IMG/VR virus record: IMGVR_UViG_3300029928_000003 | DNA from: a virus | Lineage: Duplodnaviria; Caudoviricetes | DNA: 64,000 bases | Direction: 5' to 3' (one strand) | Shown: positions 2,202-24,841 of the stretch, piece by piece | Layout of the letters: every line of letters begins with the position of its first letter | Numbering within the stretch: position 1 is the first letter of the stretch | The notes under the pieces: model-generated | Seen by the model: only the letters and a program-made list of their open reading frames with translations | Databases searched by the model: none | Told to the model about the DNA's origin: nothing | Position numbers and translations under genes: made by a program

Positions 2202-2364
2202 TTCTCTTTGTTTTAAAAGCAATAAATAATATATTTACATTGCTCAGTTACCACTAATCTATAAAGTGGTGACTTTTTGATATTTTCAACAAGAAAAATA
2301 TTGGAGTTTCTATATAACTCAAAAATATAGTGGTAAGTTGAATTATTGAGCAAAATTCAACTTA

Positions 2365-2410
2365 GGGATAGATGGGTCATTTATTATAGGTTCGATTCCT
2401 ATATATCCCA
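2365..2410 (+). pseudogene. tRNA remnant or minihelix (acceptor stem and T-arm only)
   Basis: GGGATA...ATAGG-TTCGATT-CCTAT-ATATCCC-A with only ~14 nt in place of the D and anticodon arms. Confidence 0.6.
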
Positions 2411-2418
2411 CAATTTAT

Positions 2419-2503
2419 GCCACCATGGTGGAATCGGTAGACATGAGGGACTTAAAATCCCTTGGTCATTGCGACCGTGTGGGTTCGAGTCCCACTGGTG
2501 GTA
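2419..2503 (+). tRNA. tRNA-Leu(TAA)
   Basis: GCCACCA/TGGTGGT acceptor, loop CT-TAA-AA, long variable arm, GTGGG-TTCGAGT-CCCAC. Confidence 0.95.
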
Positions 2504-2605
2504 CAATGTGTAGTAAGGCTATATAATTATTGTGAAATAATTAATTAGTCAATAGTTATTGTGATTGATAAAAAAAGAGTGCTATTGTGATAATAGTACT
2601 CTTTT

Positions 2606-2668
2606 GCTTTTAATGCTACTATCAATATGATAAGAGTTCCAAGTCTCTATAAAATGCAGAGGAAAAGT
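2606..2668 (+). ncRNA. twister ribozyme (type P1)
   Basis: P1 GCTTT/AAAGT, TAA, P2 TGC/GCA, P4 AGAG/CTCT, pseudoknots TCC/GGA and AC/GT, conserved GA. Confidence 0.85.
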
Positions 2669-2704
2669 AACAAGATTAAATAAAAATAAAAAAAACAAAC
2701 AAAA

Positions 2705-2998
2705 ATGAACAGCTTAATTAAGGTGAAAGTAGAATTTAAGAACAATGGAAATCCAATAAATGTTCAAGACATTTTTAAAGATTATCCACAACTTAAGTGG
2801 TATCTTGATGACTTTATGAAAGCCAAAGATAGTTTTATTTCAAAAGCCGAAGTTGTGGATAATCAAGTCCGAGACTGTGATATACGTAATGCACTCTTGG
2901 ATTGGTCAGTTAATGAAAGGGAGTCTGACAAGCTCTTCAAAATTGACCCAAAAGGGTTTCAATTTACATATACATTCTTATGTTATGTAGATTGTTAA
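2705..2998 (+). CDS. hypothetical protein
   Basis: 97-aa ORF after an A-rich leader, downstream of a twister. Confidence 0.75.
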   Translation: MNSLIKVKVEFKNNGNPINVQDIFKDYPQLKWYLDDFMKAKDSFISKAEVVDNQVRDCDIRNALLDWSVNERESDKLFKIDPKGFQFTYTFLCYVDC

Positions 2999-3092
2999 AC
3001 GCATTTAGGAATAAATAGTTTGTCATATATAAAATAAAACATATGAAATTATATAATTTTTTAAGTAAACATATCACAACCATATACTGGTT

Positions 3093-3338
3093 GTGTATAT
3101 CTTATTGTATAGTATTTATTTTAGTAGGACTTTTACATGTTTTATTAAAATGAAGAATTACAAACTATATAGTCCTGGTGATGAAGTAATTATCATTAGG
3201 ACACATAAAGATGACTTAAATAAAAAAGGAATAATCATAGAAGTAAATTGTTCCTATTGTAAAATCAAAATTGGAGACAAAGTATATAATCATACTTATG
3301 CCCAATTTAAAAAAGTTAATAAAAATGAAAACGATTAA
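3093..3338 (+). CDS. small KOW/SH3-like protein (start probably ATG at 3150)
   Basis: PGDEVIII...KKGIIIEV pattern. Confidence 0.5.
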   Translation: MYILLYSIYFSRTFTCFIKMKNYKLYSPGDEVIIIRTHKDDLNKKGIIIEVNCSYCKIKIGDKVYNHTYAQFKKVNKNEND

Positions 3339-3488
3339 ATATATTGGGCAGCTACTATTAATGGTATTTGGAATTGTAGTAATGACTATTAGTATGTACT
3401 TCTTAGGAGCTGCCTTAAACATTATATGATAAATATTTTCGTTGCAATAGGTTGTTAATACGGTCTGTGATAGATAGTATTAATGTTT

Positions 3489-3562
3489 GTTCTAATAACT
3501 CAATTGGATAGAGTAACACTCTTCTAAAGTGTAAGTTGTGGGTTCGAGTCCCACTTAGAACA
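3489..3562 (+). tRNA. tRNA-Arg(TCT)
   Basis: GTTCTAA/TTAGAAC acceptor, ACACT-CTTCTAA-AGTGT anticodon arm, canonical T-arm. Confidence 0.95.
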
Positions 3563-3695
3563 CAGATGCGTTAAGGATGTTAATTATTTTTGTTTTATAA
3601 AATATTATGTTATTGAGAAATAATATATGGTTAGAGAATTTTATAATTTTTCGTGAATTAAAAAGTGTTATGTTATTGTGAAATAACATAACACT

Positions 3696-3761
3696 GCTTT
3701 TAATGTAGCTTATCTTTATAAGATAAAGAGTCCAAAGCCTCTATAAATACAGATGGAAAGT
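3696..3761 (+). ncRNA. twister ribozyme (type P1)
   Basis: P1 GCTTT/AAAGT, TAA, P2 TGT/ACA, P3 TTATCT/AGATAA, P4 AGAG/CTCT, pseudoknots CCA/TGG and GC/GC. Confidence 0.9.
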
Positions 3762-3796
3762 TAACAAGATTATTAATTAAAAAATAAGAAATCAAG

Positions 3797-4045
3797 ATGA
3801 AAAAGTATCCCAGAACATCAACAATTGAAATTGATTGCGACCCTTGTACAGGTATGGGTCGTCAACAAAATCATTATGAAGCTATTTGTAAGCTTCTTAA
3901 TGTGAAGCCAGAACCAAGAATATCTGCTTTCTTTGGTTGCTGGGAATGGCCAATAACTTATAAAACAGCAGAAGACGAAGCAAAAGCCAAAGAGTTTTTG
4001 ACAGACCTATATAACTCTGGGTTATGTCGATACGCTTCTTGGTAA
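3797..4045 (+). CDS. hypothetical protein
   Basis: 82-aa ORF downstream of a twister. Confidence 0.75.
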   Translation: MKKYPRTSTIEIDCDPCTGMGRQQNHYEAICKLLNVKPEPRISAFFGCWEWPITYKTAEDEAKAKEFLTDLYNSGLCRYASW

Positions 4046-4087
4046 AATATATTTAATTAGTTGGATTCCTTTTTTTAATTTAAAATT

Positions 4088-4354
4088 ATGAAACATTATA
4101 TAGATTTAGAAGAAGTTTTAAAAAACTACACAGAAGTAGTAGTTCTTTCTTATGGTTATATGCAGTACAATCGCATATTTGGAAATCATTATGAACCATT
4201 TGCTCATAAAAGGCAAATTAAGTTTACTATTTCTAATGGAGAATTTTATAATCCTACATTTGAAATAGATGATTTACACCCAGAAGATTTCTATTTTTAT
4301 ATAGAAGATGGGGTTGTTTATGTAGACGATCCTGATATTTGTTGTTATGAATAA
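4088..4354 (+). CDS. hypothetical protein
   Basis: 88-aa ORF. Confidence 0.7.
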   Translation: MKHYIDLEEVLKNYTEVVVLSYGYMQYNRIFGNHYEPFAHKRQIKFTISNGEFYNPTFEIDDLHPEDFYFYIEDGVVYVDDPDICCYE

Positions 4355-4366
4355 AAAATTAGTAAA

Positions 4367-4756
4367 ATGAAAATATTAAAAATAAAATTTGAAAATAAAG
4401 TAAGAGTTAATAATACATATATTGAGTTTTTATATGTAAAAGACGATGATATTCTTTATTTATTAAAGGAATCATTAAATAAAAACTTTAGATATACTGT
4501 AATTAAAAAACTTGAAAATATTGATACAGTATCTAGAGATTTTATTAAAGAGATAGCACCTGCAATTGATGAAACTTTTAAAGCTAAAAAGGTATTTAAT
4601 GCATTATGCAGACCCAATACAGTTTTTGAAGTATTAGTAAAAGATAGCTATAAACCTTGTTTTAATATCGTAGGTTATAGTGAAAATGGTGTTTTAGTTA
4701 CTGTAAATCAATATTATGAATACAAGTTTGAAAACGATAATTTAGTTGTTAAATAA
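4367..4756 (+). CDS. hypothetical protein
   Basis: 129-aa ORF followed by a terminator. Confidence 0.7.
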   Translation: MKILKIKFENKVRVNNTYIEFLYVKDDDILYLLKESLNKNFRYTVIKKLENIDTVSRDFIKEIAPAIDETFKAKKVFNALCRPNTVFEVLVKDSYKPCFNIVGYSENGVLVTVNQYYEYKFENDNLVVK

Positions 4757-4761
4757 ATTAT

Positions 4762-4794
4762 GGGCATACTTTTTAGTATGCCCTTTATTTTTTT
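4762..4794 (+). terminator. Rho-independent terminator
   Basis: GGGCATACT-TTTT-AGTATGCCC followed by a T tract. Confidence 0.8.
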
Positions 4795-4798
4795 AATT

Positions 4799-5101
4799 AT
4801 GAAATATACTATTGAAAATTCTTTTTATGAAATTAAATGTGTAGTAAATTCTATTGCAAATATACAAGAAAAGGTATTTCTTATTAAAACAGATAATGAT
4901 AACTATGCGAATGTGAAGAATGATATTTTATCTATTATAACGCAAATAGTAGGATATAAACCTATTTCTAAAAAGAGATATGATATGCTAAATAGGTTTA
5001 AACCTTCTTTTGAAAACTATTTAAGAAGATATTATAAACTTAGATATAATAAAGATTTAGAATCTTATATATTTACAATAATTATTCCTATAGATAAATG
5101 A
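4799..5101 (+). CDS. hypothetical protein
   Basis: ORF 4760..5101; start moved to the ATG after the terminator. Confidence 0.6.
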   Translation: MKYTIENSFYEIKCVVNSIANIQEKVFLIKTDNDNYANVKNDILSIITQIVGYKPISKKRYDMLNRFKPSFENYLRRYYKLRYNKDLESYIFTIIIPIDK

Positions 5102-5352
5102 ATTCAATAACAATCAATGAGAAATTCTATATAATATTAGATGAAACTCATAAATATAATGATGAGATAGATAAGGTGGAAAATAATTATATTCTTTATA
5201 AAGATAATGCATTATTTAATGCTTATAATCAAACTTATGAAGAATGTGAATTTTCAGATAAAGGTCCAATAATACTTTCTATGGAATCTAAATTTAATAT
5301 TTATAAAATAATAGACGGAGTTTTTATTCCCGAAATAGAAAAATATCTTTAA
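5098..5352 (+). CDS. hypothetical protein
   Basis: 84 aa, ATGA overlap with the previous gene. Confidence 0.65.
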   Translation: MNSITINEKFYIILDETHKYNDEIDKVENNYILYKDNALFNAYNQTYEECEFSDKGPIILSMESKFNIYKIIDGVFIPEIEKYL

Positions 5353-5359
5353 TTAAAGA

Positions 5360-5391
5360 TTTGTAAAATTACATTAATTATAATAAATTTG
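5360..5391 (+). promoter_or_regulatory. Bacteroidota-type -33/-7 promoter
   Basis: TTTG-N20-TAAATTTG matches the TTTG / TAnnTTTG consensus. Confidence 0.7.
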
Positions 5392-5447
5392 TTATTAGAA
5401 TTAATTTTTTTAATATTAAAAATAATAAATTAAATTTTTAAAAAACT

Positions 5448-5615
5448 ATGAAAAAAATATTTTTTGCGGTAATTGCCGCTAGTTTATTTATGGTATCTTG
5501 TGGTAATACTAATAAAGCAAATACGGTTAAAGATACTACGATTGTTGATACAGCTAATGTAGATTCTACAATGATTGATTCTCTTGCTGTAGATTCTGCA
5601 TCAGCAGTTCACTAA
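5448..5615 (+). CDS. small lipoprotein (55 aa) with repeated D-S/T motifs
   Basis: MKKIFFAVIAASLFMVSCGNTNKANTVKDTTIVDTANVDSTMIDSLAVDSASAVH; signal peptide II with VSC lipobox; below the ORF-track cutoff. Confidence 0.85.
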   Translation: MKKIFFAVIAASLFMVSCGNTNKANTVKDTTIVDTANVDSTMIDSLAVDSASAVH

Positions 5616-5664
5616 TTTAATATTCTGTTTTCTTAAAAGTTTCAGTAAAAAACTTTTAATTTTA

Positions 5665-5736
5665 GCTCTTGTGGAGTAATGGTTAGCTCGTCAGATTTTC
5701 ATTCTGGAAATTTGGGTTCAATTCCCAACAAGAGTA
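5665..5736 (+). tRNA. tRNA-Glu(TTC)
   Basis: GCTCTTG/CAAGAGT acceptor, TCAGA-TTTTCAT-TCTGG, T-loop TTCAATT. Confidence 0.9.
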
Positions 5737-5802
5737 CTTTTTGTTTTCCATTTTGATTGTTGTTTTATTATTATTCTTACTAGTAATTAGTAGGAATAAT
5801 AT

Positions 5803-5875
5803 GCGGAAGTAGCTCAGTTGATAGAGCATCAGCCTTCCAAGCTGAGGGTCGCGAGTTTGAGCCTCGTCTTCCGCT
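5803..5875 (+). tRNA. tRNA-Gly(TCC)
   Basis: GCGGAAG/CTTCCGC acceptor, TCAGC-CTTCCAA-GCTGA; T-loop is TTTGAGC rather than TTCGAGC. Confidence 0.92.
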
Positions 5876-5878
5876 CTT
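5859..5878 (+). repeat. 20-bp direct repeat, copy 1 (tRNA-Gly 3' end)
   Basis: GAGCCTCGTCTTCCGCTCTT identical to 11491..11510. Confidence 0.95.
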
Positions 5879-5915
5879 GTTTAATATATAATAATTAAAT
5901 TTATAATAAACGGAG

Positions 5916-6353
5916 TTGTTAATTCCCGCAATTCATGAAAAACTGAATAAGGTTTATGCAAAACACTTTGAAATAAACGTGTTGAAACCTAAAATACTTC
6001 CTAAAGAAGCTTATTACGCTCCAAGAAATCGCTATTTATCAAATGTTTTATTACGTGATTTGAATTGTAATTCCAAGACCTATATCATATACGCATAAAG
6101 ATGTATCCCACAAAATACACGGAAGTAAAAATTATGGGATTGACTCCTTTAGGCGGAAACAAATCTATAGTGTCCGATTATAGATGCAAGGGAAACTCCT
6201 TTATTGCGGTCATAATTCATGAATTTGGACATGGCTTTTATAAGGCATTGTTCTAATCCTAATTGCATAATGTGTGATTACCAAAAACATAAAGGAAAAC
6301 CTTTTGTTTTTATCACCAATTTATGCACGCAACAGACTTCTCTGATTAACTAA
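5916..6353 (+). pseudogene. frameshifted archaemetzincin-like (M54) zinc peptidase
   Basis: Fragments in different frames: AYYAPRNRY; VIIHEFGHGF; HCSNPNCIM...LC, matching the HExGHxxxxxHC-x4-CxM signature. Confidence 0.7.
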
Positions 6354-6661
6354 TATATCTATACGAGCGATGGTAATTGTATAAAATCTAAAAAGTATGG
6401 TAAACTTAGAATCGATTGTTTAGTAATAGGTCTCATTTACTGTATCTTTTAGATATTATATTTACTCTATCTTCATAGACTAAGTAAATAACTATTTATT
6501 AATCTTTTAAAATTTAAATTAAAAATGAAACAAGTAAAAAAAGCAATTAAATGGTATTTAATGAATGTAGAAAAATCTTATGTAAGTCTTCCTGATGGAA
6601 CATTTCCTTACTTTTATATTCATTAAATAAGAAACAATGTTAGAATATATAATTCTAACTT

Positions 6662-6716
6662 ATTGTAATGCTAGCATTGAAGGTTACAACTCCTTATGAA
6701 AAAAGCAGAGTACAAT
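6662..6716 (+). ncRNA. twister ribozyme (type P1, no P3)
   Basis: P1 ATTG/CAAT, TAA, P2 TGCT/AGCA, P4 AAGG/CCTT, pseudoknots TAC/GTA and AG/CT, conserved GA. Confidence 0.8.
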
Positions 6717-6747
6717 TAATTTTCGTTTAATTAAAAAATTAGTAAAG

Positions 6748-7020
6748 ATGAGACATTTAAGTATTTTATTATTTCTTTTAATGGGTTTTTCATTAAGTTC
6801 CCAAACTTATAAAATTCAAGGTAATAATATTATATGTATGCAGAAAGTAGATAAATTAACTTCTTTTACTTATCAAGATAAAGATGGTACAATTTATCCT
6901 GTATATATAAATAGTAAAGGTAAGTTTTACATTAAAAAGATTTCTAAGAAGACTGGTAAAGAATATAGATATTATCTTCCTAAAGAAATTCAAGAACAAT
7001 TAAATCAATTATATAATTAA
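6748..7020 (+). CDS. secreted hypothetical protein
   Basis: N-terminal signal peptide; C-terminal KISKKTGKEYRYYL. Confidence 0.75.
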   Translation: MRHLSILLFLLMGFSLSSQTYKIQGNNIICMQKVDKLTSFTYQDKDGTIYPVYINSKGKFYIKKISKKTGKEYRYYLPKEIQEQLNQLYN

Positions 7021-22015: not shown

Positions 22016-24294
22016 TGGCTGAATTAATTGCAATTGTAGGAGAGAGTGGTCTTTAAGGAATTTTAACATTTTTATTTTGCCATAAATCAAATATTTTTAT
22101 TATATTTGTATTATAATCATAATATAATACAAGTATGAAAAGAACTTATAAAATTTTAACGAAATTACACAAAAAACCTGGAATTTATATTATTTCTTGC
22201 ACAGAGACCGATAAAGTATATATTGGGGAAAATTTAGATATTGATGCACGATAGGTTATGAAAGATGATACCGCAGGCCACTTTAACAAATCCGTTTAAA
22301 ATTGGGAAGCCTCGATTCAAATTATTGTGAAATAATTGAGGTAATCAATTACGAACTATATGAATAGCATAAAAGTAATATAGACGTTTAACGACTAGCA
22401 GATAGATAGCTAAATTAATTCTGCCACGAAATACGGACATTTTATAAATTGTATGTGAATATAAAATATAAAGTGAAGAGATAGTCTAATCTACATATTA
22501 ATGAATATAAATTGTAGAGTGTAAGATAAAGAGCTTACAGTTAATACAGTATGAGCGGAAAAACAACAAGTATTAGGAATTTGAATCCTAAAGAAACTTT
22601 TATTATTTCTACTACTGGTAAAAGACCTGGAATTAGGGGAGCTAAAAAATTATACCCTTCTGTAGAATTAACTAAAGATTCATTTAAAGGTAACTTTTAT
22701 GAAACCTCTAATGTTGATAATATAGGAAAGATGATGGCATTAGTTTCTAGTAAAAGACCTGAAATAAAAGTTATTATTGTTGATGATTAATAAAAGCCAC
22801 AAAATATTTTGAAAAGTCATAATATATTATATTTAATGTAATAAAAATATATAAATATAATGATATGAATAAAAAATATAATGACTTTGAAATTATTGAA
22901 TTACATTCAAAAGGTTTAACAGATAAAGAAATTGCAGAAATTTTAGGAGTAAATCCTAATAATTTAGCAAGAAAAAGAAATAGATTAGGTTTAAAACCTA
23001 ATAAAAATATCAGAGAAACTTATATATTAACTAAAGAAGAGTTAGAAATCATTTGTGGTACTCTTTTAGGAGATTCTACAATTAGATATGTTCATAAAGG
23101 ATGTAAATTTCCAAATTTAACTTTTACATATGGATTAAATCAGAGAGAATATTTTGATTTTTTATCTAATAAATTAGTTAATTTAAAATCATCAGTTAAA
23201 GAATACGATTCTAAATATATAAGAACTAACAGAGAAATTGCTAAAAGATTAGTATTTACTGGAAAGAACATGAAATGTTTAGTAGATATATATAATTCTT
23301 TTTATCCAGATAATAAAAAGATAATTCCTATGGCATTTGTAGAAAAATATTTTACAAAAAGGAGTTTATATTATTTATTTATGGATGATGGAAGTTATGA
23401 TGTTTCTAAAAATAGTTATATAATAAACACGCAATGTTTTTCATACGAAAATCTTCAAGAATTTGTTAGTTTTTTATTTAAAAAATTTAATTTAGAATTT
23501 AATATAAAAACTGATAGAAGTTTATATTTAAAACATGTTTCTAATGATATTATGTATAAAATTTTATCTGATAATAATGAATGTGATTCTATGAAATATA
23601 AATATGGTGATAGTCATCATAAAACTCCGTTAAACAAGGAAACTCCTGAAAAGGACAATCTTGTGCTAAACCCTCAAGAAATTGAGGAAAAAGCTAAACG
23701 ACTAGAAGTGATGCCTAACGAGAAAGACGGGGCTATAAAATCTTCCACGAAAGCGGGGCACTGTTCAAAGTAAAATTCGTGAGAATATGAAATGAATTAA
23801 AGATATAGTCTGAACTATACATATAAATAAAAGTATAGAATTGGAAGATAAAGAGCTTCCAAGATAACAAATTGTATCAATATATACAAGCATTTGAATC
23901 AATGGATCGAGTAGACGAGAAAGGGTTCTCAAAGTTTACTGATATGGCGAAACATGCCTATGAAGTTTTAAAGAAAGGAAAGAGTCTAAGGGATGATCTT
24001 TATGTATGTATTTTAACGCATAGTGAAAATATAGGAGATAATATTAATCCTTATTATAAGATTAAGACATTAGGCAAACTCCTAGATTCAGTAATTACTT
24101 TAGAGGGATTGTTCACGTATGTATTATTTACAAAAATTATAAAAGATCCAACTACTGATAAAATTATGTATAAGTTTATAACTAATTCGGATGGAACTTG
24201 TACTGCTAAAACTCCAATTGGTTTATTTGAAGACAATCTAATTGATAATGATCTTGATTTTGTTATTAAAAAGATAAAGGAATATAATGAGTAA
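22015..24294 (+). CDS. AAA ATPase (Sak4/AAA_24-like), 3 exons: 22015-22050, 22554-22787, 23875-24294 (229 aa)
   Basis: Splicing restores Walker A GESG|SGKT and Walker B IIVDD|YQY. Confidence 0.9.
22076..22108 (+). promoter_or_regulatory. intron-internal Bacteroidota-type promoter
   Basis: TTTG-N21-TATATTTG upstream of the endonuclease remnant. Confidence 0.65.
22135..22299 (+). pseudogene. truncated GIY-YIG homing endonuclease in intron 1
   Basis: PGIYIISCTETDKVYIGE then TAG at 22252 and TAA at 22297. Confidence 0.8.
22788..23874 (+). mobile_element. group I intron 2 (in Walker B)
   Basis: GAU|...G boundaries; P7 GACTA (23700) / TAGTC; 3' AAGATAAAGAGCTT element shared with intron 1. Confidence 0.9.
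22865..23773 (+). CDS. intron-encoded LAGLIDADG homing endonuclease with N-terminal HTH
   Basis: ICGTLLGDS and LYYLFMDDGS; GLTDKEIAEILG. Confidence 0.9.
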   Translation: MNKKYNDFEIIELHSKGLTDKEIAEILGVNPNNLARKRNRLGLKPNKNIRETYILTKEELEIICGTLLGDSTIRYVHKGCKFPNLTFTYGLNQREYFDFLSNKLVNLKSSVKEYDSKYIRTNREIAKRLVFTGKNMKCLVDIYNSFYPDNKKIIPMAFVEKYFTKRSLYYLFMDDGSYDVSKNSYIINTQCFSYENLQEFVSFLFKKFNLEFNIKTDRSLYLKHVSNDIMYKILSDNNECDSMKYKYGDSHHKTPLNKETPEKDNLVLNPQEIEEKAKRLEVMPNEKDGAIKSSTKAGHCSK

Positions 24295-24841
24295 TTACAT
24301 GTTTGAAGAATTTACAATTGCTTTAAAGTATCAAGTTAAAGTAGATACTGATACAGGTGAAATGACTACTAAATGTATTAGTAGAAAGATTGATAAAAGT
24401 AATTTTAAAGTTTCTGAAAGTAAAGTTAATGAGAGTTCAGAACCTCAATTAACACTGGAAGAAAATAAGTATCGTCTAAATAATGCTGCAATTAAATTAA
24501 TGAATTTAAAAGCAGATGATAGACTGGAAATTAAATATGAAAAGCAAGGTAATATTATAAGTCCTATTATAGGTACTGCTGAAGCTTTTCATATTTCTGG
24601 AGGTAATAGGCTTACTAAGTCTAATACTGTGGCATTTCGTGGGATTAAGAATAAAGAGCTGTCTGAATATGGAACAATTTTTACTATTACTCCATATAAA
24701 GATGGCTTATTTAGTTTAAAAGGAGATAAAGAAATAGTAGAACAGCAAGGTGATGAAAACATTGTAGAACCCGATGTTAATGACTTTGCAGATTTAGTAG
24801 ATAATACCGAAGAGGTAGATTCATCATTTTTTCAACTTTAA
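24287..24841 (+). CDS. hypothetical protein with acidic tail
   Basis: 184-aa ORF. Confidence 0.75.
   Translation: MSNYMFEEFTIALKYQVKVDTDTGEMTTKCISRKIDKSNFKVSESKVNESSEPQLTLEENKYRLNNAAIKLMNLKADDRLEIKYEKQGNIISPIIGTAEAFHISGGNRLTKSNTVAFRGIKNKELSEYGTIFTITPYKDGLFSLKGDKEIVEQQGDENIVEPDVNDFADLVDNTEEVDSSFFQL

Follow-up and report, generated by a model that had tools for sequence, protein, structure and literature searches.

A stretch of 64,000 nucleotides (nt) from the virus record IMGVR_UViG_3300029928_000003 (hereafter the window, at its full length) carries three short elements on the + strand, at 2607–2667, 3697–3760 and 6662–6716, which comparative evidence strongly supports as genuine type-P1 twister ribozymes with covarying pseudoknots. 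They are located in the early/tRNA region (arm) of a phage genome, three copies inside 4 kb, and are unannotated additions to the known twister-P1 class. In roughly the first 56 kb of the window every gene is on the + strand, and its G+C content is 27%. The window encodes a phage replication module comprising DNA polymerase, helicases, primase, ligase, NrdD and a LAGLIDADG endonuclease; the last is a homing endonuclease open reading frame (ORF) at 22865–23773 (+), within the module, that matches phrog_11023 (E 1e-16). The DNA polymerase is 44–47% identical to those of IAS virus, crAss001 and cr111_1 (Crassvirales, Steigviridae), and by its sequence the window is assigned to Crassvirales, as DNA of a gut crAss-like phage. 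The GenBank phage set holds no record near-identical to it. Because leaders in the window are A-rich and free of Shine-Dalgarno sequences, as expected for such a host, the phage probably infects a member of Bacteroidota.

The Rfam model of twister-P1 (RF03160), in which pseudoknots are not scored, was run with E-value reporting on positions 2300–7000 (4.7 kb), and all three sites aligned to it end to end (model positions 1–68) on the + strand. The matches reach 45.9 bits (E 4.1e-8) at site 1, 58.3 bits (E 1.1e-11) at site 2 and 28.7 bits (E 0.0037) at site 3, which belongs to a subtype lacking the helix P3. Our own covariance model, described below, gives 67.2, 76.8 and 47.3 bits, respectively; the three sites are in its training set, so these scores are not independent evidence. 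The elements had been proposed by a model that saw only the DNA letters and a list of ORFs (the sequence-only reading), and its coordinates are correct to within 1 nt of the match ends. The check it suggested, with the Rfam twister-P1 model, thus yields full-length matches at the three sites, all below the gathering cut-off of RF03160 (67.2 bits), and routine annotation therefore overlooks them. Indeed, Rfam at curated thresholds returns five tRNAs only from the whole window and misses the twisters. It is their AT-rich helices that hold all three sites under the curated score. No other ribozyme family was found in a whole-window Rfam E-value scan, and the hepatitis delta virus (HDV) family gave no match in the window at E up to 1. 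With filters off, our own model finds nothing in the window beyond the three sites; the next best match has 20.5 bits and is without P4 and its loop L4. Weak own-model matches at 24475–24523 and 1732–1805 were dismissed, as P4 and L4 are missing.

Each site was parsed as P1, UAA, P2, T2a, P3 or a linker, P4, L4 (G, U, T1a, AA, T2b and C), P4′, a junction, P2′, GA, T1b and P1′, where the two pseudoknots are T1, formed by L4 and L1, and T2, formed by L2 and L4. Predicted cuts fall at U2611/A2612, U3701/A3702 and U6666/A6667, the same positions as in the sequence-only reading, and agree with the Rfam alignment. As had also been said, all three sites keep UAA where the cut is expected and GA behind P2; the same is true of the A after the predicted cut and, in L4, of G, U, AA and C. 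The G of this GA is what we take to be G45 of the O. sativa ribozyme. Adenine A7 and guanine G45 are given as the catalytic residues of that ribozyme in a review table (PMC5408937). T1 is UCC/GGA, CCA/UGG and UAC/GUA at sites 1, 2 and 3, and T2 is AC/GU, GC/GC and AG/CU, exactly as claimed; all of these pairs are Watson-Crick, and the differences between the sites are compensatory changes. Because RF03160 does not score the pseudoknots, they constitute an independent test. Site 1 has P1, P2, P3 and P4, its P2 consisting of three pairs and one U-U mismatch, and P2 has four Watson-Crick pairs at sites 2 and 3. Minimum free energy folds recover the twister helices P1, P2, P4 and, where present, P3. 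When both strands of the 64 kb were scanned exhaustively for all helices together with T1 (3 bp) and T2 (2 bp), exactly three sites were obtained, and 100 dinucleotide shuffles gave a mean of 0.01 site; without the pseudoknot requirement, the window has 8 matches versus 1.7 in shuffles.

The nearest virus record found, designated G002 (91 kb), was used for comparison and has orthologues of all three twisters. Its copy of site 2 is identical, and that of site 1 differs solely by an indel in the P3 loop. At site 3, P2 changes from UGCU/AGCA in the window to UAUU/AAUA in G002, which means two fully compensated pairs. More distant relatives were collected from IMG/VR with a pattern fixing only UAAUG, P4, the loop AA and AUAAA. 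It returned 84 stretches, mostly phage contigs of 60–200 kb, and the covariance model built from 17 of those sequences found 87 twisters, 58 of them distinct; a looser twister pattern was swamped by chance matches (3 real in 117 stretches). In the alignment of the 58 distinct phage twisters, pseudoknots included, 96.9% of the cells pair, against 70.5% in shuffles and 33–46% when the partners are slid. Double-sided changes are seen in 21 of 23 pairs, including all three T1 pairs, and pairing over the family amounts to 98.8% for T1 and 99.1% for T2. T2 is GC/GC in nearly all members, with a G-C to A-U change in three sequences, and among the 58 (alignment A3) AG/CU occurs only at site 3 and in its G002 orthologue. 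At the level of sequence, then, the twister fold, the catalytic nucleotides and both pseudoknots are shown to be intact and maintained by compensatory change. None of the own-model twister-P1 elements in 19 other IMG/VR loci (L090, L128–L221) passes 67.2 bits, and RF03160 appears to have a cut-off that is too conservative for phage members rich in A+T. Two Twister-P5 matches (L149 and L164) pass their own gathering score, and a twister-P3 match in L125 (25.7 bits) was rejected for its many mismatches.

At site 3, P3 is missing, and a CAUUG linker and an 8-nt AUGA(A/G)AAA junction are present. Replacement of P3 by a short junction is reported for about 20% of twisters (PMC5408937). A pattern for this P3-less subtype was matched by 11 stretches, one being the G002 orthologue. 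Nine of the ten others, which are GC-richer phage contigs, have every helix and both pseudoknots paired, with T1 being CAC/GUG, UCC/GGA or CGC/GCG and T2 being GC/GC or AC/GU, and the subtype to which site 3 belongs is therefore real. The CAUUG linker and the AUGA(A/G)AAA junction are constant in the subtype, in GC-rich and AT-rich phages alike (L214–L222).

On the upstream side, two of the sites follow a tRNA gene, as the sequence-only reading noticed. tRNA-Leu(UAA) at 2419–2504 (+; ARAGORN; Rfam tRNA 56.6 bits) is 102 nt upstream of site 1, and tRNA-Arg(UCU) at 3489–3563 (+; ARAGORN and Rfam) is 133 nt upstream of site 2, both without an encoded CCA. Because the cut lies 100–130 nt beyond the tRNA, cleavage by the twister cannot on its own produce the 3′ end of the tRNA. 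Directly upstream of tRNA-Leu there is a tRNA-like element, 2332–2410 (+), with a good T-arm, no ARAGORN call and a sub-threshold Rfam tRNA score (20.9 bits, E 0.77), perhaps the remnant of a tRNA or a tRNA-like RNA. Between tRNA-Leu and the hairpin next to P1 of site 1, RNAfold predicts three short hairpins (2507–2525, 2526–2541 and 2544–2569, +), and the region 2505–2606 folds with −27.2 kcal/mol (z −5.7). Between tRNA-Arg and site 2, a hairpin with a GAGA loop appears in the centroid fold at 3606–3627 (+). Site 3 is preceded by a 33-codon ORF at 6525–6626 (+).

Furthermore, each of the three twisters has a hairpin almost touching P1. A hairpin directly 5′ of P1 is termed P0 in twisters. Those of sites 1 and 2, detected by a scan for terminator-like sequences and by folding, are at 2573–2605 (+; 15 bp) and 3664–3695 (+; 14 bp, GUGA loop), each with a gap of 1 nt to P1, and that of site 3 is at 6639–6659 (+; 8 bp, gap 2 nt, fold z −4.1). 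They are probably the known optional P0 stem, which is present in 21% of annotated twisters (PMC6154101). Among the GC-rich P3-less members, all real ones have a hairpin in the 45 nt before P1, which in most ends 0–3 nt before P1, and a significantly stable hairpin was found in the 40 nt upstream of 26 out of 54 distinct relatives. Adjacency to tRNAs, on the other hand, is local and not a general rule: a tRNA or tmRNA gene on the same strand lies within 1 kb of 8 of the 58 distinct related twisters, and tRNAs are no denser in the 1 kb around related twisters (0.093 per kb) than elsewhere in those loci (0.131 per kb). Among the cases with such neighbors, the locus L136 has a tRNA (4284–4358), a twister (4145–4207) and a tmRNA (3469–4018) in a row on one strand (3469–4358, −), and in L129 a twister sits within a cluster of tRNAs and a tmRNA.

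On the downstream side, every twister is followed by a short leader and an ORF. Twister 1 precedes a 37-nt A-rich leader without Shine-Dalgarno sequence (2668–2704, +) and a 97-aa ORF (2705–2998, +; no Pfam match, marginal PHROG match only), and twister 2 a 36-nt A-rich leader (3761–3796, +) and an 82-aa ORF (3797–4045, +). Twister 3 precedes a 31-nt leader (6717–6747, +) and a 90-aa ORF with a signal-peptide-like N-terminus and a TAA stop (6748–7020, +; phrog_16207, E 9e-11), the first gene of a variable island. The spacing of 31–36 nt to the ATG that had been claimed thus holds at sites 2 and 3 and is exceeded by 1 nt at site 1. None of the three downstream ORFs belongs to an informative family in Pfam or PHROG, and no relatives of the protein after site 3 were found in viral contigs. 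Modules 1 and 2 are paralogous, with about 80% identity from the twister through the leader (repeat family D6). Same-strand ORFs of at least 45 codons start within 250 nt of 43 out of 54 distinct related twisters; a same-strand start lies within 60 nt in 27 of the 54, the median distance being 44 nt. Three twisters within 3 kb occur in an unrelated 174-kb phage (L129); small ORFs flank each of them, and one lies 66 nt after a tRNA. The module that recurs consists of P0 hairpin, twister, short A-rich leader and ORF. The tRNA–hairpins–ribozyme–ORF module of the sequence-only reading is thus partly supported, the link to tRNAs not being general, and the function suggested there, release of pre-tRNAs and of structure-protected mRNAs with a 5′-OH, is plausible and borne out in part.

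Some other signals are present in this arm. A canonical GC-rich terminator hairpin with a T-run is located at 4762–4783, between 129-aa and 100-aa ORFs, and has no ribozyme, so the twister is not used by every unit of the arm. A Bacteroidota-type −7 box, TAAATTTG, is found at 5384–5391, with TTTG 24 nt upstream, before a 55-aa lipoprotein-like ORF (5448–5615), and a second one, TATTTTTG (TAnnTTTG), is at 3585 just after tRNA-Arg.

Comparison with G002 reveals where the modules end. The two genomes are 95–98% identical across 2432–5910 and then diverge. In the variable island, the sole conserved piece is a 225-nt block at 6495–6719 (89% identity), which contains the 33-codon ORF, P0 and twister 3. 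Similarity stops about 3 nt after twister 3, that is, about 3 nt into the leader, and different cargo genes lie beyond; in G002 the twister is followed by a 356-codon ORF, starting 11 nt downstream, with five TAG codons that need readthrough. The synteny break thus coincides with the 3′ end of twister 3 and the start of the variable gene island. The related phage also has an extra stretch of about 420 nt (L005, 1684–2106, compared with 4050–4105 of the window). This stretch is flanked by two copies of a 55-nt intergenic sequence, of which the window has one, between the 82-aa and 88-aa ORFs, and it appears to be a small cassette that entered a repeated intergenic joint without a ribozyme.

What would such ribozymes do in the phage? 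The reading that we favor, with a probability of roughly 60%, is that the twisters cleave themselves during transcription and so detach the RNA upstream from the message that follows. Each ribozyme in the + strand transcript would cut after the U preceding the conserved AA, and the upstream RNA, containing a tRNA at sites 1 and 2, would thereby be parted from the message. The former would end with the P0 hairpin and a short U-rich tail bearing a 2′,3′-cyclic phosphate. The latter would start with a 5′-OH buried in the compact double-pseudoknot fold, continued by the unstructured, A-rich leader of 31–37 nt; with such a start inside the folded twister, the message would have the same 5′ leader whatever precedes it. 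The module may therefore be an element of intercistronic processing and insulation that can be placed before different cargo genes. Cleavage would take place in vivo, on transcripts shared with the tRNAs, and might influence the stability or translation of the message. Processing of polycistronic transcripts is a role that has been proposed for bacterial and phage twisters (PMC6765202), and in the 3′ cleavage fragment the 5′ end reportedly lies buried and is a poor substrate for ligation (PMC8782182).

Several points weigh against this reading or against the assignment on which it is built. All three sites score below the gathering cut-off of RF03160. Thermodynamic folds of twisters 1, 2 and 3 are no better than those of shuffles (z 0.2, −0.05 and −1.15, respectively), and the case therefore rests on the comparative evidence. 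P2 of site 1 has the U-U mismatch, and a P2 length of 4 bp is said to matter (PMC5408937); T2 of sites 1 and 3 deviates from the "conserved GC". Co-transcription of tRNA and ORF is an assumption. In another phage, the ORF homologous to that of site 2 (71% identical) follows a hairpin and an A-rich leader and has no twister. Twister-P1 matches are also absent from the relatives crAss001, IAS virus and cr111_1, whose cultured or reference genomes were searched, so the elements are specific to the lineage of the window phage and, as the homologue without a twister likewise implies, dispensable for these genes.

Three rival explanations for the module overlap with one another rather than being mutually exclusive. 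The first places its purpose upstream. Because the 5′ strand of P1 is U-rich, P0 plus P1 resembles an intrinsic terminator, and the predicted cut would fall where such a terminator would release the RNA; the twister would then be a fail-safe that cuts read-through transcripts at nearly the same nucleotide, so that, with or without a stop of the polymerase, a hairpin protects the 3′ end of the tRNA-containing RNA. P0 at sites 1 and 2 does score as terminator-like, with the P1 strand itself as the tail; relatives of high G+C have a classical GC-rich stem next to P1, whose U-rich strand comes after it, and in two other phages a twister is near tRNA and tmRNA genes. However, a strong upstream hairpin is missing in about half of the related twisters, no more than 8 of 58 have tRNAs nearby, the gene before site 3 is a small ORF and not a tRNA, and the crAss virion polymerase or the host polymerase would have to stop at such hairpins. 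We consider this explanation rather unlikely.

Transcription may instead start in or just after the hairpin region, so that the twister is at the 5′ end of the message and trims a triphosphate leader to yield a 5′-OH, structure-capped mRNA, with no cistrons being separated. The end of a sigma-70-like match with an extended −10 is at 2594, some 15 nt ahead of the cut of site 1, the −7 box at 3585 follows tRNA-Arg, and early transcripts of the crAss-like phage phi14:2 have 5′ ends without a common upstream motif (bioRxiv 10.1101/2020.03.07.982082). Nevertheless, promoter-like matches in the region are not more frequent than in shuffles (32 versus 40.5 expected), and no promoter motif, whether sigma-70-like or the Bacteroidota −7 box, is common to all three sites, which leaves leader trimming improbable.

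It could also be supposed that the modules persist mainly as repeated recombination joints and that cleavage is a by-product or no longer occurs, if only at site 3 with its divergent sequence. The precedent is the promoter-early stem-loop (PeSL) cassettes of T4-type phages, repeated units for which mediation of gene shuffling is documented and which the twister modules resemble (PMC2839356). The end of homology with G002 about 3 nt after twister 3, the different cargo beyond it, the status of the 225-nt block as the only conserved piece in the variable island and the paralogy of modules 1 and 2 through the leader all fit this idea. It is opposed by the retention of all catalytic nucleotides and by the compensatory changes in P2 of site 3 and, across the sites, in T1 and T2, which show that selection acts on the RNA fold itself and not on DNA identity only; the idea is thus very unlikely. 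Finally, that the three matches are chance look-alikes in AT-rich DNA, as sub-threshold Rfam scores and insignificant folding energies might suggest, is refuted by the pseudoknot-requiring scan (three sites versus 0.01 expected), by the compensatory changes in orthologues and by the strong covariation across the family, and its probability is negligible.

Intercistronic processing and insulation, the reading that we prefer, can be combined with the synteny break into a bolder proposal, which we offer tentatively as a possibility of modest likelihood, well short of even. P0 hairpin, twister and A-rich leader might form a portable gene-head cassette, shared by Crassvirales and other large phages, that severs and insulates each early message and whose conserved stretch of about 100 nt serves as a joint for the exchange of cargo genes between phages, including TAG-recoded ones. 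If true, the cassette would be a ribozyme-based counterpart of the PeSL cassettes of T4 and would give twisters a concrete biological role. Proximity of twisters to phage genes has been known since the class was described, and the role of bacterial and phage twisters has been an unanswered question since their discovery (PMC6765202). Apart from function, noteworthy features of the window elements are the non-GC T2 pairs, which widen the known sequence tolerance of the twister core, the P3-less junction, the synteny break at twister 3, and the fact that the RF03160 cut-off misses a sizeable population of AT-rich phage twisters, so that twisters are under-reported in phage annotation. The layout of the locus is also clean, with three copies in 4 kb, each having a hairpin, a short leader and a different gene.

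Among known systems, the closest is the type-P1 twister class itself, which reportedly goes back to Roth et al. 2014. The window elements share with it the order P1, P2, optional P3 and P4, open at P1, as well as T1 and T2, the U-A cleavage site, the GA with the catalytic G and the L4 loop G-U-NNN-AA-NN-C; the 5′ hairpin fits the optional P0, and P3 is absent at site 3 as it is in about a fifth of twisters (PMC5408937, PMC6154101). They differ from it in the sub-curated scores, the non-GC T2 at sites 1 and 3 and the P2 mismatch at site 1. A functional parallel is found in synthetic insulators of the RiboJ type, an engineered hammerhead-based part said to come from Lou et al. 2012. There too, a self-cleaving ribozyme in the 5′ leader removes the upstream context and gives the gene a constant 5′ end, whereas insulation by the window twisters is inferred. 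The theta ribozymes, minimal HDV-like ribozymes, are likewise small, self-cleaving and located downstream of tRNAs in gut Caudoviricetes, including stop-codon recoders (Kienbeck et al. 2024, PMC10879173). They are of another class, with a nested double-pseudoknot HDV fold and a cut at their own 5′ end directly after the tRNA, and direct cleavage of the tRNA 3′ trailer has been proposed for them, whereas the window twisters are 102–133 nt away from tRNAs and their tRNA adjacency is not general. The PeSL units (Arbiol et al. 2010, PMC2839356) are also short, repeated and regulatory, with a stem-loop between small non-essential genes and with gene content changing at their borders. A PeSL consists of a strong promoter and a terminator stem-loop and has no ribozyme; the window modules, in which no shared promoter was found, have stem-loops, twister folds and, at twister 3, a recombination border.

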